Of a DNA stretch of 64,000 nt, positions 52,779 through 62,200 are shown in pieces. The DNA lies in the NCBI GenBank assembly GCA_051362555.1, contig CM120648.1, forward strand, positions 6,692,587-6,756,586, in the 5' to 3' direction. The DNA comes from Lingula anatina. Lineage: Eukaryota > Animalia > Brachiopoda. Made by a program: the position numbers and the translations under genes. Positions within the stretch are counted from its first letter, which is position 1. The number at the start of each line of letters is the position of its first letter. The notes beneath the pieces were generated by a model, which ran no database searches, was not told the DNA's origin, and saw only the letters and a list, made by a program, of their open reading frames with translations.

Positions 52779-55307
52779 TCAGGTGTCTGCGTTTAAACTA
52801 GTCGGCGTTCCTACTATGAAAATATCCTCGGGCGTATTTTTAGCGAAGGTGGAACCTTTCGAACTGAGAGGTGTGGACCTGCGACTGTGGCTCGATCCTC
52901 GAGCTATCTCAACACCACTGCTCGGCTCTGTGTGATCTAAGATGGCCGCGCTTAACGAGTCTCTGATGGAGTCGAAGTCGTCGGTCTCGGGGCGGAGGCC
53001 ACAGACGGCACATATCCGGACGCGCACTGAATCGGTGAGGAAGCAATAAATGAGGCAGTTGCCAATGCCCTGTCCATTGTCGCCGAATGCCTGGTATAAA
53101 AGGACAACAATGAATTGGTTATTTTGTAACCTTGTTTAAATGTAGACATATTATTCTTTTTCGAAATAATTTTATTTATTTATTTTACCTGTTTATTTAC
53201 TTATATTGATATTAATGAATTGATTAAATTTTATACGCAATTGTTATAAGTGCCATAATGCCCAGCATATAGACGTAGGTGCCCAAGTAACGATTGGACA
53301 GTTCACATTAAATTCAATGTACATGTATCATCTAGGCGACATGACGATATTATCGTATAAAAAACACAATAAACACGTACCTGAAATACTGCTAATACCA
53401 CGTTGACGACAGTGTGGAATGTAGGATTCTCCACTACCCCATACGCTGCCCAATAGCAGCTGTTAGCCACAAATCGTATGGTCCCCCAAATGCGTAAGAA
53501 TATAAAAATGATAGGAATGGCTTTCATGACGCGGTCAGCCCGACTCACGGCGTCTTGAGTAGCTCGGTCCACGTACATAGATTCTGTTTGGCGGATCTGA
53601 GTGACAGAAAAGAAGTTTATTTTATCTGCCTCTAATGACACTTTTTCTAATAGGGAATAAACGGTTTCCTGTACATACTGTTAGAGGGTGGGATGATAGA
53701 TTGACTGCATGAAGGAGTAAGTCGGTCCATAATAATTCATCCTAGCAAGTCCATAAATCAAACAAATTATTGTTAACTTACAGGAAAGAAGACTAAATGT
53801 GAGTTTTGCAGGATAAATAACGGGACAGAGGTAAAAAATGCTGACACTTTAAGATGAGAAGAGAGAAAAATGACGTCACATCGTGACGTCAGAGCACTTG
53901 CCGTGGATTTCAGATTCCAGCGAAGCGCAGTGTAAATTACCGGCACGGTGAAGTAGACGAAGATTTCCCAAACCTTACCCGCTGCCAGAGGTAGTCCCAC
54001 CATTAAACCTAAGAGATTTTTCTACTTTAACAAACTAGATAATATTTATATATATAGTTACCATTGTGTGAACTATTTTATATTCGATGAAATAGTTTCC
54101 AGCTGCCTTTTGTCGGTTCTAAAAGAGCCTGAATTAAGTGCTTACTACATTTACCTGAAAGCCATATGCCATTTAAACTTTATTAACTTGTCGATGTGTA
54201 GGCCTACGTAAGTCCTCCCCTCACCCCTGGTTCAAAGGGCTAATTCTTTAAAAATAAATGAACTCCCTTCAGAGACCACAAATAGTAGGCTACGTCATTG
54301 AAGATCACAAACCTAGGTCATGTCGGTCGAAGTCTGCCTGGCAGATCTTAATCCAGCACCATCCTGCGGTGAATGCAGTGCCCCCTATACTGCGGTCTGG
54401 GGAGTAGATGAAACCGAGGCGCTGGTATCGGGCTATTATGGCGGTCACGGTGACTGCAGAACGGCAACCAATGATTTTATAATTGAAATATTTATGAATA
54501 TATAACTAAATTAATTAACATTTGCATACATTTCGAATTCTGTTTAATCTCTTAATGATATCTGATATTGAAAATGCTGCATAACATACATGTGCATTGT
54601 ATGAATGAATAAATATATGTAGATCAGCTGTATTTTATATGGTTGCTTAAGAGCTTTCGAACTGTTTTTGGTTTTAACACAATATTTAACCACTTATAAC
54701 ACGCTCAAATAAAAGTTAACATCGGTTTTCTCACTTTAATCTCACCCACAGGTCTTTTTCTGTGTAGATACTAGTAGTTACTCATGGATACCAGTAGATC
54801 ACAGAAAGTCTTCCTTGGATTGAAGGACAATGTAACAATTTTAAAAACTAAACACTTACGTGGAACACCCCATGCGATGACGTGCAATATCCATTGAAAC
54901 CTATCCATCCAGCTTGGCGAATTTTTCAGAAGTGATTCTCTGACTTCCCAGGCTATGATTATCGTCCAGATGAAGGACGAAATTAACCCAGTGGTCCCTA
55001 TAAAACTCTGAGCTACGCAAACTGGGCTAGGTTTTTCGCATTCAGATGTCACGTTTACGTTAGAAATGTTCGGTCGTGACGTCATATACATCGCCCAAGA
55101 TGCACCCGTCGCGTTACTTATGCACACTAAGAAATCGGCAATTGACAGGTAAAGCAGGAGCTGCCGAGAAGAAGAACGAGTTTCTTTGAACAAGAAAAAA
55201 GTGGCAAAAATGACAAAACAGCCAAGCAGTGAAAATATGCATGTTACTATTGAAATAAGATAAATAGCTGGCGTAATGATATTATAGTCGTCGTCAATGA
55301 AAACCAT
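52779..55307 (-). CDS. GPR157-like 7TM GPCR, copy H; exons 55307-54860, 54453-54313, 54008-53902 (GC donor), 53596-53381, 53090-52779
   Basis: RQLLLYLSIADF, CVAQSFI..SSFIWT, HVIAWGVP, TAGWCWIK, GKVWE, IPIIFIFLRIWGTIR, GDNGQGIGNCLIYC. Frame is intact using ACG|gcaagt at the position where paralogs have ACG|gt. Confidence 0.85.
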
Positions 55308-57557
55308 GTCTCATAAAGTGTCTATTTTAGGACTTTGTTTTGTTAGTTTTGTATAGAATTTAGTGATTTCCTAAATTTCCTTTAATTTTTCTACTGTTAT
55401 ATCACATTTGATAGTTTTATCCGTCAACACTATATATCGAAATTCCGTCCTTTGATATTCAGTTTTTATTAATAGGTCGTGCCATATCGTTAGTGACGTT
55501 TGCCTAGGTTATATTGACTTTTTTATGACGTCACAGTTGAAAAGTGGTCCTTTCACGTCATGATGCATCTGTCATTTCATGTGAGTTCGTCTAATTTACT
55601 GTTTAATCCGTGAAGCTGTTGTTACGTGTGTATTTTACTGAGTTGCTCTCCTGTGAAGTATCGTATTTCTTGTTTTATATACTATCATCCAAAGGAGCCA
55701 CTGTCGTATGATGTGCTATAGTAAAAAGATATAAAAATGGACTTAGATTATATAAGGTTATACTATCAGCAGATTTCTTTAACAAGCATATTAAGCATAC
55801 GAATTTCTATAACCCATATTTGACAACATTTCCTAAGCCAACTATTCGAACTTGGTATTTAACAATCACTAATGCATTTAAACGGCAATCGTTATCTTGT
55901 TCGTTTTAATTGTCATCAGTTTATATTAAATAATATAAACATGCTTCGATTGTTACAAGTGATTATTCACCCTAATACGGTTAATTAACTGCCATTAATT
56001 TAAGTCCACTATGTGGAATTATCTTAAAAACAAGGACGCCGCGTTAAACATTAAACCATGACTTATTCAATATACTTACAAAAGTGTAGCAGTGCAGGTG
56101 ATGATTCAGCACGAGCCCAGGACAAAGACTGTGCAAACAAAGCCAATTGTTATCAGGTATATACACGCGGTGATGACTGGAACCACATGAACTGATGTGA
56201 CCGTTGTTGGGATGCATCTAGATAGACCTCGGATGTATTTATCTCTCATATTTATCAAAATATTATCAATATATATATAATAACTCCCTCTAAATAAAAG
56301 TCTACTCACCTTTTATTGATTTTTGTAAATGGGTTGCTTTTGTTTTTTGGATGGTTATTTCATTTTTTAAAATATTCTAGTTAGTTAAAAAGGCACATTT
56401 TATTAGTAAATTAGTCAATATATATAAAAATGAAAGAAAAAAATAATTGTCCAAGCAATAAAAGAAAATTGTGATAAGAATTTTAACTTCCTCATATCGT
56501 TTGATAATGTATCATGGGGGTTGAGCCCGCTGATCATAAGTACGTTGAATTCATTGAACGCCCGACATTTTCACACGCAGTACAACTGAAATTAAAACGG
56601 CCGAATCGGTGCACGAGTGATCTCAGCGCCTTTGTTTTACATTTGGGTACATTTGGGAAGAAATGTATATGTAGTTACTCGCTTGACACATTATTTTAAG
56701 TCTACCGTGTGTAAATGGGACAAAATACTAGAATTATCAACGAATTCAGCGTTATCTCTTCCTTGTAAATTCAACCCAGTTCACATTCCTCGTGTTCGTC
56801 TCAAACAATGCTTTAATACGGAAAAAAAGTTATCAGTTCTTTTCCATCAAAGTCAAACCTGTCGTACCTGCACTAAGTCTCATTTGATACCTGTGGATCA
56901 GCATGGTTCACAAACCTGTTGTAAGAGGACAAAGGGAACCACGCTGTAAACCAGGAAAAGAATGGCATCTTACGTCGGATACGAATGATACCAATTTGCA
57001 TTTGAATGCAGTAAAAGAAGTCCTGAAAGAAGTAGTCTTGTAAGCCATTATATCTTCACCCAGTTTATTACCTAGCAAGGGATAAACACGTCAGGAAAAA
57101 CCAGGTCCCCCAACGTCGTTAAGCAATTAAGTAGGTACGATACGATACGACAATAAAAGCGTACACAGATCAGCAATATCGTAAGTTGGTTAATTAGTTA
57201 CCAAACTCCTATGTTGTGTATATTATGGGCTTAGTGCTTAACATAAAACGTTAGCCATAATTGTACAGAAGGGTAGAAAGGTTGTGGTACAAATTTCTGC
57301 GGCTGCATCCTCGTAAGTGACTTGCATTGGATAGATGGAGTCTATGTTGCGTCATGCAGCGTCACTAGATAAGCAGATTACACGTGAATCAGACGTTAAA
57401 CCTTGGACGATCACGTAATATGTCGTGCAAGTACACAGGAGTTTATGTGAATTCAGCACTAAACAATTGGGTTGTTGTGAATGAATGGTTGGTTATCTAT
57501 AAATAGGAAAACGAGGATCCAACGTGCTTAATTCTACATTTCAGTGTGAAATGTACA

Positions 57558-58523
57558 ATGGAGGTAAATCAAGAAATTGAAATAAATGACGTCACTTTGA
57601 AGGTCCATGGTGATCACAGGCAGCCGGGGAACTGTTTGCAAAACAATGTTCCTGTCAGTCTAGCGCTTCGCATCGACACCAGAGACGGAAAAGAAACAGC
57701 AGATGGCGCCAGGACATTCCTCAAGCATAGTGACGTTACAAAAACTATCGCTGAGTATGTGACGTCACATACGTTTACCAGCCCGGAAAACATTGCCGAA
57801 GATGTCGCAAAGGTAACTATTGTTGGTTTTCAAACCACTTGGGTTGAAGTCAGAGTTAATGTGGTAGAAGAGGGACCGCAGTCTGTACATAATCCTGGCA
57901 CAATTAACATAAGAAGAACAAGGGAAGATTTTCCCCGACCCATCGTTTTTATATCCCTTGGATCAAACATCTGTCCCGAGAAGAACTTAACAAATGCTGT
58001 TAGATTACTCAGAGAAAGGACCACTGTTGTTGCCGCGTCCAAGGTTTTTATCACCCCGCCTCAACTGGACACTAACCAACCGCCATACCACAACATGGCC
58101 GTCAAAATTCTAACGCCTGGCGACCCATATGATCTTAAAAGGGCGTTGTATGATATTGAGGACAAGCTGTTGCGCGTGCGCGATCCGCTGCGTAAGAATG
58201 GGCCCCACACCATAGATTTGGATATTTCGTTTTGGGATGACGTCACATTTAGCTTCACGGCGTTCAACAGAGACACACTGGGAACTTCCGAGAAGACGAC
58301 CTTAAGCGATCACACGAAGGTCAAATCGGGTACAAAATTACAGCAAATCCCACATCCGGACACCCTGAAGTTTGCCCATACCATTGTTCCTCTCGCCGAC
58401 CTTGACCCAGATTTTAAACATCCAGTCGTGATGAAGACGTTAGCTGAAGTTGCAATGGAAGTGACAGGACACGTTGACTTTAAGGGTGTGTTTGAAACTG
58501 CAGACTTTAAAATTTACGATTAA
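57558..58523 (+). CDS. folB-folK: Intronless fusion of a degenerate dihydroneopterin aldolase (FolB/DHNA) domain and a 6-hydroxymethyl-7,8-dihydropterin pyrophosphokinase (FolK/HPPK) domain, 321 aa
   Basis: The C-terminal part carries HPPK motifs FISLGSN, TPP...QPPYHN, IE...RVR, GPHTIDLDI, IPHP and VPLADLDPDFKHP. The N-terminal ~125 aa follow the FolB pattern (IEINDV..VHG, VSLALRID, PENIAEDVA, VEVRV, GTINIRR). ATG is in a strong context (ACAATGG); TATAAATA at 57498-57505. Confidence 0.85.
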   Translation: MEVNQEIEINDVTLKVHGDHRQPGNCLQNNVPVSLALRIDTRDGKETADGARTFLKHSDVTKTIAEYVTSHTFTSPENIAEDVAKVTIVGFQTTWVEVRVNVVEEGPQSVHNPGTINIRRTREDFPRPIVFISLGSNICPEKNLTNAVRLLRERTTVVAASKVFITPPQLDTNQPPYHNMAVKILTPGDPYDLKRALYDIEDKLLRVRDPLRKNGPHTIDLDISFWDDVTFSFTAFNRDTLGTSEKTTLSDHTKVKSGTKLQQIPHPDTLKFAHTIVPLADLDPDFKHPVVMKTLAEVAMEVTGHVDFKGVFETADFKIYD

Positions 58524-59270
58524 AATCATGTATATGCAGGTGCACGTACATTTGAACTCTGTCAATACATCTACGTTGTTTTATTTAAGGCTGCATGTTG
58601 AATAGAAATACAGACCATACAGATGCATACATAATGCACATGTAGTACGACTACTGGTACCACCATCAACGATACATTGTACATGACATTTCAGGCCTGA
58701 TAAAACGTAAAATACATTTGGTAAGAATGTGTATATTATCAATAACAAGCTATATATGGCATTTAGAAAAATCAAAGGTCTCGCTATACCTGTAGAGACG
58801 TATTAAATGGGGATAAGTTTCTATCACCCAAGGCAGCACTGGGATTTTCCACTACTGTAACAACTGTAAGGTATACATATATGCACAATGCTCTCCTATT
58901 GTGTACCAGAACCGCAGATTGCTTTTTTCGCAATATGTTCACAGACATATCTTTGGCAAATTATGTGCGCTTTCCAGCGAGAATCTTTTCATAGAGTTGT
59001 CGTCCCCACTCAGCTGGGTTTTGGTAGCTATATTTGTGCCCTATCTACTAAGCTTTATCGTCCAAAAACATGACCAATTGTTAAATTTTGCGATAAAAGC
59101 ATGAAACTTGGCCAGATTCATTGCTTGTAAAATACTGATGCACCTAGTGTCACCTGGTGACCTATATTTTTTCATAATGTTTGTCACCACCATATCTGAC
59201 CGCCTTGCATGTTTTCCATGTGTCAATAAACCCATGGAAAATAGTTATGAGAAGGGAAAATCCTTGGTCA

Positions 59271-62200
59271 TTATTTTCTTCTCCATTGCTTCTTACCAAG
59301 CAGCACTGTCTCCACCGCGACCAGGGGGACCTCTATCGTCAAGGACACTAGAAAAGCGGCGCCAAAACTAACCACGACGTGGCCGATGAATATGTATGCC
59401 TGGAAATAAATACGTATGACTGGAAATAAATCATTAACCGTTCATTCAATAACCCCAATGACAATATTATTAACATTATTGTTATTACATTACTATTGCT
59501 GTTGTTGTTGACGTGCATTAAATAAGTAATAATGATAGTTTACCAAAATTTCATGCGGCATTTAAAGCGTCCCTAAGTTTTGACGGTGCCCTTTCTATCC
59601 GTTCTAACCTCCAACCCCCTCCCCCCAAATATATCAAACAACTATATTACAAACAGAATACCAAGCGGAGAAAATAATTAATGTTAATACTATTATTACA
59701 TTTACTTCTGCTCGTCTTCCATCAATGTTTATTCAGACTAATCCCCCGACCCCTTGGTAAAAACCAGGATCCGCCAGTGGTGTTATGATATTACAGGGCC
59801 GGATTGTGGCCGTCTTCTGGTTCTTCCAGAAGACGGCCAGACGGTCAGATTTTCAAGTTAGGATTGACGGGTATTTGATTTTTTCTGTTGGAAGACGGTC
59901 AAAAATGGAGGATGGAGCAACAAAGATAATTTGGAAGACTGTCAGAAAATATCTCTGGCTTACCATCATTGAATCGGTCATATACAGCATGGTCCTCTGG
60001 CTCATCCCGAACCACACCATGACTGGCAGATGGATGAGGAAAACAGAGTACACCAGGCGGCTGAGGGGCGTCCATGCCGGGTGGGACAGTAGACTGTTAA
60101 CGACACCTTTGAGAAAGAGGGGGGGAAATTAAGTCATGCCATTATTACGCAGAGGCGAAGTGTACTAGTACTACAGTGAGATCCAGGAAAACTATTTGAA
60201 AATTCCGCTGCAGATGTTTTTTTTTTTTTTTTTTTTGCAACAATTCTACATATAAACCCACTGACAGCTGACAGCTGCAGTCAAATTAAGTAAAAGTAAA
60301 AAGTTGTTAAACGCTTGATGTCAATACTAAGCTCCAAATTCGCCCCTAAGACTGCAAGAACTCATTTGATTTTTCTCATACCACCATGTCCTGTAACGCA
60401 AGCTAAAATAATCCAGGCCACACCCATTGCAAAAGCTGGTCTTGATATAGCGTCATAGGCAGCGCCACCTATATCTGACCATAGACTGTCCCCGCCCCCT
60501 TCATGCACGTTGCCATGGTAAACGTAGATGACTGACGTACAGAGTCCCAGTGACGTAATCCAACCAAAGAGTACAGCTGCCTGGCAAACAAGACTTTGAC
60601 GGTAGGAACTGTCTTAGCCACCAAGTGCCAATTATCACATGTAGTATAGGGTCTACACGTATAGCCATACCATCATGGTAATCAGTCAAAAATTATTACT
60701 ATTATTTTTTATTATTATTATTCAGTTATTTTCGAACGCTGCTGATGTTTTTATCTTAAAATTAGCACATTTTAATACAAATCTAGATAAAAAAGGAGGA
60801 AATTATTTTCATGTACGGCACTAAATGAATGAAATAATATATGAAAAATTAAAACATAGCTATAATTAAGTAGAGTGGAAATATTCTACCGTACTGTGGG
60901 TAGTTTCAGCGTGCATTGCGTTCTGTTGAGGGCGTATCCCAGCAACACACCCACCAGGTAAGGTCCCACACGGCACCATGGCGCCACGTATACACTCGTG
61001 AACATATCTAAGCTGAGCAAAATGAGAATAAAGGTAGTTGCAGGATATTGTCTCTCTAGGTGTGCCGTTATGAATAATATGATCCAGGTTAAAAAACACA
61101 CTTCACATGTACATGTACATCTACGTAGGAGAATATCGAGACGTAGTCCTTTATATTACCCTATTGTTGACGATAGACAACGGTGACATGTAAGCTGAAC
61201 ATAAATAGAAAATTGCCCACATTTCCATTTCCTTTAGAAAAAAACGTGTTAGTGTGTACTCACTTCATAAAACTCAGGCTAGGAACGTCACTCGTACTCC
61301 TGACACCATAAGATATAAGACCAGTGGCAATGATACTGGCCACCAAGAGTAAGACGCAAAGTATGACACCCAACGCTGGTATCCTGAACCGCAAATACAA
61401 AAGAAAATAATTCTAGTGAAAAATAAGTTTCCGTTTTTTGAAATTCATTTCCACTTCAATTCTTACATTTCGTTCATTTTGTGCAATACTTGGTTATAAA
61501 AGAGGCTTGAATAAAAAGAAACCATCTCTAACAAAGTTATGGAAAAACGATGCAGATAAAAGTAAAAAAGTCTCTTTATCACTAGGAACTATATCGCCCC
61601 CTCACTCGTGATCTAGATAGTGACTTTCACATGTTAAGTTAAGACAAGTTGAGAATCGATCTTCTACTCACCAAAATAATGGCAGTAGGAACAACGGGGA
61701 TATAACGTAGAACTGCATATCGTTGGAAAGATACCACGTCCAACCCATGCACTAAATGATGACCAAAAATAGAAAGAGTTTGATCCATATGTTTATGAAC
61801 ATAGAATACAATGGACACTTTCAGTTGAAAAGTGCGCTGAATAATGACGACAAATATATATTTGTGTAAAACATTTGTATAATGCAATGTTGATCTAATT
61901 TTGACCATTCCTTGTGTATTGTTCTGTGTTTTGTTCTATGAAATTCTGACAATAAATATACAGGTACAAGTATGCAGTTACCATCATTAATCTTTTAACA
62001 ATGTTCCTTTTCACAATGTCAACTGAATAGGATGTGAGGATGGACAACAGACAGACAGACAAATAAAAAAATCAAAAGGCGTACGAATATCAAAACAGAC
62101 ACAACTCACCATTTCCGCTGGATTGACCAAATTATTGACATAGAGAAGATTTTGCCACCAATTCATGCGGCAGTATTTCTCATCGGTCGAGTACTCCGGG

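Follow-up and report, generated by a model that had tools for sequence, protein, structure and literature searches.

A fast-evolving FolB-HPPK duplicate in the brachiopod Lingula anatina: a likely member of an old pterin module predicted to act outside folate synthesis

Introduction

What is a fusion of two folate-type enzymes doing inside an animal chromosome, and how did it come to be there? The question is raised by a stretch of 64,000 nucleotides of Lingula anatina DNA (hereafter the window), in which a single-exon coding sequence at 57558..58523 (+ strand) encodes a FolB-fold and HPPK fusion of 321 amino acids. A sequence-only reading had described it as a folate-pathway FolB-FolK fusion in an animal chromosome, either gained by horizontal transfer or unusually retained, and since domesticated.

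The gene was already annotated, as the window protein is one residue (D40G) from the Lingula anatina RefSeq entry XP_013381390.1, “folic acid synthesis protein fol1”. Genes of this kind were also reported in amphioxus and Nematostella in 2014. Excerpts of Maguire et al. 2014 (PMC4224340) describe a Branchiostoma folB-folK fusion that is transcribed, is without folP and is a likely transfer, and also note folB-folK in Nematostella and folB in Trichoplax. Searches of the open-access literature turned up no paper dealing with the genes of Lingula, with the triple fusion described below or with DHPS-less Anaerolineae. The genes are unmentioned in the main text and supplements of two Lingula genome papers, and the main text of PMC13350694 contains no folate terms. 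What is new here is the disabled-but-conserved duplicate, the spread across three phyla and an argument from comparison that the role lies outside folate synthesis.

The coding sequence and its domains

The frame is uninterrupted through its 321 codons, as originally read. The HPPK-type domain comprises amino acids 127-317 (57936..58508, +), delimited by residue comparison and domain branch. It scores 78.6 bits on Pfam PF01288 (E 6e-22, cut-off 25.7, residues 131-284) and 66 bits on NCBIfam folK TIGR01498 (cut-off 54.1), which bears out the earlier description of a clear HPPK domain. An insertion of approximately 25-30 residues lies within it (58251..58331, +), with a model pLDDT below 50 at amino acids 244-251.

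The N-terminal FolB/FolX-fold domain, amino acids 3-122 (57564..57923, +), is degenerate according to residue comparison, domain branch and model. The claim of a DHNA-like domain stands as regards the FolB match and the fold, but the match of 29.8 bits on Pfam PF02152 (E 9e-7) is slightly below the cut-off of 31.8 and catalytic residues are gone. The domain reaches 14.1 bits on FolB TIGR00525 (cut-off 72.15), which an intact Lingula paralog, XP_013401489, passes at 74.1, and 13.6 on FolX PRK11245 (cut-off 152). The AlphaFold model, whose input was an alignment of homologues with 110 rows, has a mean pLDDT of 86. It predicts the strands and helices of a FolB-type fold at residues 4-121, and its top Foldseek match, over the whole chain, is the pneumococcal DHNA-HPPK 2cg8 (E 1e-16).

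The stop codon follows after HPPK, so that the C-terminal DHPS domain of eukaryotic FOL1 is absent. No match to DHPS or SDR was obtained in the window by tblastn (E<=1), in agreement with the initial observation that FolP is missing there. A triple fusion in the window was ruled out as no SDR match was present.

Chromosomal position and alleles

Upstream of the gene lies an exon of a 7tm_2-type GPCR, identified by Pfam at 54771..55310 (-), which is the last of a tandem array. Downstream is an exon of an NRF-6-like acyltransferase gene at 60362..60613 (-), recognized by ESM Atlas (0.96) and without a Pfam match. These are the two neighbours that had been named for it. The GPCR array extends over window positions 20284-55310 (-) and contains at least seven 7tm_2-type copies, drawn from eight tblastn pieces and sharing 44-49% identity with the last copy in the first coding exon.

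The integration check covered four of the nine DNA runs with this stretch, from three studies. A contig of run X1 (54500-57858) links the GPCR exon to the ORF with 0 differences, and contigs of X7 (57329-59566) and X3 (56580-58274) also bridge the ORF and its flank. Depth on the ORF is similar to that of the flanks, no one contig covers the entire 8 kb, and run X1 is heterozygous. The ORF is a genuine chromosomal animal gene and no contaminant: the contigs join it to both flanks, and no chimeric or contaminant join was seen in these runs, as the proposal of a gene inside an animal chromosome had it.

The frame is open in both haplotypes, and the sole indel seen in the coding sequence is an in-frame loss of 18 bases. 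The record XP_013400859 was considered as a separate paralog and rejected in favour of an allele, which it likely is, because its 18-base loss and substitution cluster segregate among the DNA runs. The 22 coding differences between alleles that were listed comprise 11 nonsynonymous (745 sites) and 11 synonymous (218 sites), giving for these listed differences a pN/pS of approximately 0.3 (binomial p 0.0045). The alleles of the window copy show purifying selection. GC3 is 0.47 in the ORF and 0.45 and 0.40 in neighbouring exons, and with the selection on its alleles this upholds the suggestion that the gene has been domesticated.

Two further features of the window were recorded. A very high-copy short element occupies 59791-59958, with a diverged copy at 1003-1165; its summed contig depth is approximately 4e5, against approximately 90 in the flanks, and it occurs in many polyA reads of other loci. 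We take it to resemble a MITE with GC-rich ends, and it accounts for an apparent ORF at 59853-60128. An open frame of 306 codons lies at 1278-2195 on the minus strand and presumably contains an RWD-domain-like motif.

Upstream region and transcription

The putative TATA-like TATAAA (57498..57503, +), the acceptor-like pyrimidine tract ending in CAG (57528..57544, +) and the strong Kozak context of the main ATG (A-3/G+4) are all in the sequence, as had been noted. A 9-codon uORF, out of frame and running over the main ATG, is situated at 57551..57580 (+), with its ATG at 57551. The two candidate donors proposed for a spliced 5′ UTR are not conserved: in X2 as well as X7 the G of the one at 57181..57186 (+) is replaced by T, and the one at 57313..57318 (+) is lost in X2 through a deletion of 16 bases from 57313, so that the X2 haplotype destroys both and X7 one.

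Transcription was checked in four of nine RNA runs, on 6-25% of the data of each run. Within that sample there was no splice joint at 57181, 57313 or 57544, and the missing joints are weak evidence because hardly any reads cover the NRF-6-like exon next to the gene either. The same reads included none identical to the window within the coding sequence. Coding-sequence reads occurred only at 58073-58091, where 17 (11 + 6) carry five differences, including the Phe177 of the paralog, and reads of the XP_013401489 type were found in two of the four runs. Thin cover, of depth below 1, was seen in X16 RNA at 58416-58868. In the in-frame letters 5′ of the ATG (57507-57557), the window reads LILHFS and the paralog (P0010) LLVHCS. 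This likeness may go back to a splice acceptor common to both and hence to a DNA-level duplication, which is a weak lead.

A degenerate copy and an intact paralog

The two Lingula copies were compared with E. coli FolB and E. coli FolK as the references for numbering. The FolB domain of the window copy has lost E21, Q26, Y53 and K98 and keeps E73; all five are present in XP_013401489. We take E21, Y53, E73 and K98 to be catalytic sites. The HPPK domain retains E77, R82, R84, D95 and D97, presumably the Mg/ATP ligands, along with the pterin-site residues T42, P43, Q50, Y53 and N55, and it bears the signature of its clade, K88-N89...F121-H123. Three substitutions stand out in it: the catalytic R92 to His, the pterin-stacking F123 to His and R121 to Phe. 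The first is His217 (58206..58208, +), which is His in both alleles, at a position that is Arg in 164 of the 168 stored proteins matching the motif. Excerpts of one study (PMC4814558) name R92 and F123 as critical and report that an Acinetobacter FolK2 without them did not complement E. coli folK; PMC5879566, also in excerpt, is a further source on R92, F123 and R121.

The two domains of the window copy have evolved at different rates. In the domain trees the N-domain branch is 1.98 for the window copy and 0.40 for the paralog, and the HPPK branch is 0.25 in both; identity between the two proteins is 30% in the N-domain versus 58% in HPPK. The window copy is thus a duplicate of the intact paralog that evolves fast, and the pair is a clear example of duplicates that diverged asymmetrically. 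To judge from its residues, it looks catalytically disabled yet maintained, since the residues are lost, the HPPK branch equals that of the paralog and the alleles are under purifying selection. An amphioxus duplicate, Branchiostoma floridae LOC118422509 (P0184), carries Y53D, K98R and R92C and lost the same three sites independently, in parallel.

The N-domain of the intact paralog scores best on FolX, at 100.7 bits (cut-off 152) against 74.1 on folB, and finds PDB 1b9l first. An assignment to FolX was considered; the score is below the cut-off and the domain does not group with E. coli FolX in a tree that is not resolved at this point. A further Lingula record, XP_013401459 (P0029), consists of the N-domain only. 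It shares 92% identity with the intact paralog, and a contig of 670,120 bases is listed for each.

Distribution and origin of the family

The family is present in three Branchiostoma species with several paralogs (by homologue searches and name look-ups, which establish presence only) and in five anthozoan genera: Nematostella, Actinia, Actinostola, Oculina and Paramuricea. It also occurs in other Lingula records, in an MMETSP transcript and in Logan/ENA proteins of presumed eukaryotic status. With this spread, and with amphioxus reported in 2014, the case does not stand as an isolated or surprising one. A third domain, SDR, is fused in Oculina, Actinostola, the MMETSP form and several Logan/ENA forms. 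In Oculina it scores 339 as a pteridine reductase (cut-off 288) and has TGX3RXG, given in an excerpt of PMC1971073 as the motif of PTR1/FolM. A phage collection yielded 10 records, all below 32% identity, and a metagenome scan for anthozoan loci, in which introns were sought, gave 3 weak matches.

Trees were built as a quick version of 84 rows, a careful version of 54, which omits 30 near-duplicates and distant unnamed rows, and a version of 42 without the window copy and other long rows. The Nematostella and Actinia models were excluded, as their middle is missing. For the FOL1 rows, a DHPS domain is on record for three, none was detected in one and the rest were assigned by architecture; the row labelled FOL1_P0062 is a FolB-HPPK-SDR fusion and was counted as such.

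With 54 rows, the window copy and the intact paralog group at 99/94, Lingula and Branchiostoma at 100/96 (97 on HPPK alone), and anthozoans with the microbial triple fusions at 99/97. The Anaerolineae join the eukaryote-like rows at 98/90 and 99/91. FOL1-type rows stand apart at 100/100 with 54 rows and 100/99 with 42 rows and no long rows. A joint eukaryote clade obtained only 88/66 with 54 rows and was not resolved with 42, and a single animal origin was neither recovered nor rejected (all animals forced together, p 0.059). Constraining the eukaryote-like rows to group with FOL1 cost 26 log units (AU p 0.054) in the 54-row set and 25 log units (AU p 0.027) in the 42-row set.

Other characters were compared alongside the trees. 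The HPPK signature K-N...F/H-H is common to the family and the Anaerolineae, while all nine FOL1-type rows keep H115-R121-F123, and the paralog is 53-54% identical to Anaerolineae proteins versus 30-38% to a FOL1. A profile of the C-terminal tail, built exclusively from anthozoan and microbial-eukaryote-like sequences, scores 14.8-26.8 bits on 9/9 bilaterian tails, against at most 12.3 on 171 bacterial ones.

On these comparisons a bacterial origin appears favoured over descent from eukaryotic FOL1, and the gene probably goes back to an ancient bacterial source. Taken together, the trees, the tail and the HPPK signature favour an old acquisition from Anaerolineae-type bacteria before the brachiopod-chordate split. 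It is likely that the acquisition preceded that split and possible that the divergence of cnidarians came after it as well, most animals having then lost the gene; a single arrival in eukaryotes, followed by loss of the reductase, would be plausible. The direction of transfer follows from placing the root on FOL1. Of the horizontal transfer first suggested, the bacterial source is favoured by the trees and the AU value of 0.027, tempered by that of 0.054, and a transfer into Lingula only is not, as the genes group with those of Branchiostoma.

The bacterial module

Among GTDB genomes, the best 80 of 304 related places were analysed, and 30 of the 80 genomes, picked for large contigs and to include other phyla, were searched. 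At the 80 loci, folB/X and folK are fused in 33 and adjacent in 44, folE lies within 4 kb of the module in 63, and DHPS is found in none. In these Anaerolineae/Aggregatilineales loci (L001-L080) folE is divergent from the folB/X-folK module in 63/80, and the neighbours of the module include metK and rhamnose-synthesis genes. In some Chloroflexota this HPPK type is fused to a Nudix domain (P0007, P0052, L042, L043, L055), a candidate dihydroneopterin triphosphate pyrophosphatase, and in Caldilineales/Anaerolineae it is fused to diaminopimelate decarboxylase (P0018-P0020).

No DHPS above the cut-off was present in 23 of the 30 genomes, all Chloroflexota of one Anaerolineae-type group; because they are one related group, they amount to about one event. 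The Pterin_bind matches that these genomes do contain, MetH-sized frames or an AcsE-type enzyme, indicate that the search for DHPS works. The one extra Pterin_bind ORF (G022), examined as a candidate pterin user, is an AcsE-type methyltransferase. Each of the 23 has a single FolK, FolC and an adjacent folE, and none has PabB over the cut-off. Searches of the same genomes for pterin users over the cut-off gave PhhA in 1/23 and neither PRK09135 (pteridine reductase) nor RFA-P synthase (0/23 each). The DHPS-positive genomes, 7/7, carry at least two FolK, and beside the module they have an SDR that resembles pteridine reductase.

Judged by gene content, the bacterial pattern is that of a second pterin pathway. 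The module likely activates a pterin for non-folate use, as the nearest bacteria are without DHPS and PabB and the DHPS-positive ones have a second FolK. Free-living bacteria with the same half-pathway and no DHPS or PabB point to a different end product. The idea that the window copy is a working folate-pathway DHNA-HPPK lacks support, given the lost catalytic residues and nearest bacteria without DHPS. The label “folic acid synthesis protein fol1” that databases give to such genes is not to be relied on.

Proposed function and alternative explanations

The explanation that we consider probable is that the single-exon Lingula gene is a specialised duplicate belonging to an ancient pterin module, one that likely derives from bacteria and is predicted to act outside folate synthesis. 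In the intact members, host GTP cyclohydrolase I would supply dihydroneopterin, which the FolB-fold domain may cleave or epimerise, giving 6-hydroxymethyl-dihydropterin. The variant HPPK would use ATP to activate this product, and an enzyme other than DHPS would take the activated pterin. In the anthozoan and microbial eukaryote-like forms, the fused pteridine reductase could set the redox state of the pterin. In the window copy, the N-domain would be catalytically dead and still folded, acting as a scaffold, and the HPPK domain may be selected as a pterin/ATP-binding unit or as a slow kinase of altered specificity. It is a more tentative idea, and one we would hold with some doubt, that Anaerolineae, microbial eukaryotes and early animals have in common an undescribed, DHPS-independent pterin pathway. 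Its membership is put forward just as speculatively: GTP cyclohydrolase I, the FolB-fold enzyme, the variant HPPK, pteridine reductase and a further pterin acceptor.

The window copy could instead be a functionless duplicate turning pseudogene, with the intact paralog alone of consequence. Both of its domains are without catalytic residues, a uORF overlaps its start, and no coding read identical to it was found in the four RNA runs, two of which contained the paralog. The neighbouring NRF-6-like exon is, however, nearly silent in the same runs, and the frame has stayed open although each N-domain site has changed approximately 2 times. The HPPK branch matches that of the paralog, allele pN/pS is approximately 0.3 (p 0.0045, listed differences) and the protein is predicted to fold well, which leaves pseudogene decay unlikely. 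Rather unlikely, too, is that the family serves folate after all, the HPPK product of the paralog passing to a non-homologous DHPS or to symbionts, or the enzymes recycling pterin from folate breakdown. FolE, the FolB fold, FolK and sometimes Nudix do form a coherent first half of the pathway, FolC is found in 23/23 DHPS-less genomes, and an alternative folP is raised in excerpts of Maguire et al. 2014 (PMC4224340). Against this, DHPS and PabB are both absent from those 23 nearest genomes, folate-making genomes carry a separate second FolK, R121 and F123 are replaced across the clade, and export of a pyrophosphorylated pterin would be improbable.

The remaining alternatives concern origin. Excerpts of PMC4224340 describe FOL1 as ancestral to opisthokonts, and vertical descent from the FOL1 (folB-folK-folP) of ancestral amorpheans, with the DHPS domain dropped in animals, is not rejected by the AU test on 54 rows (p 0.054). 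We regard it as improbable, since the test rejects it on 42 rows (p 0.027), free trees set FOL1 apart (100/100 and 100/99), the paralog is far closer to Anaerolineae (53-54%) than to a FOL1 (30-38%) and the HPPK signature is common with the former. A recent bacterial transfer into the Lingula lineage alone would suit a single-exon coding sequence with bacterial relatives at approximately 50% identity and a patchy presence among animals. It is very unlikely given the clade of Lingula with Branchiostoma (100/96; 97 on HPPK alone), a GC3 that fits the host and a tail common with anthozoan forms and absent in bacteria. That an intronless, bacterial-like ORF might be a contaminant or a chimeric assembly is scarcely credible when contigs of four DNA runs from three studies connect it to its flanks, GPCR exon included, with heterozygous alleles and no difference in depth.

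Comparison with known systems

SulD, the DHNA-HPPK of Streptococcus pneumoniae (2cg8), has the same domain order and is the best Foldseek match. SulD is an active folate enzyme; the window copy shares 17-19% identity with it and is without E21, Y53, K98 and R92. Eukaryotic FOL1 (DHNA-HPPK-DHPS) likewise has FolB followed by HPPK and is the origin of the RefSeq name “fol1”, but the window gene has no DHPS domain, falls in a separate clade and carries another HPPK signature.

The FolX/FolM tetrahydromonapterin route and the folB-clustered FolK2 of proteobacteria also represent a second, non-folate pterin module. The resemblance extends to the N-domain of the paralog, which is best on FolX, and to the anthozoan fusion with a TGX3RXG pteridine reductase. 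They differ in that the module of the present family always comes with HPPK, which to our knowledge the FolX/FolM route does not need, and the paralog is below the FolX cut-off.

The closest parallel is the Branchiostoma fusion, which has the two domains, no folP, a chromosomal location and an inferred prokaryotic origin, and with which the Lingula genes form one clade. In the excerpts of Maguire et al. 2014 (PMC4224340) it is presented as an amphioxus acquisition near Planctomyces, with Nematostella left out. Here, by contrast, the window copy is without catalytic residues, the family spans three phyla and its nearest bacteria are DHPS-less Anaerolineae.
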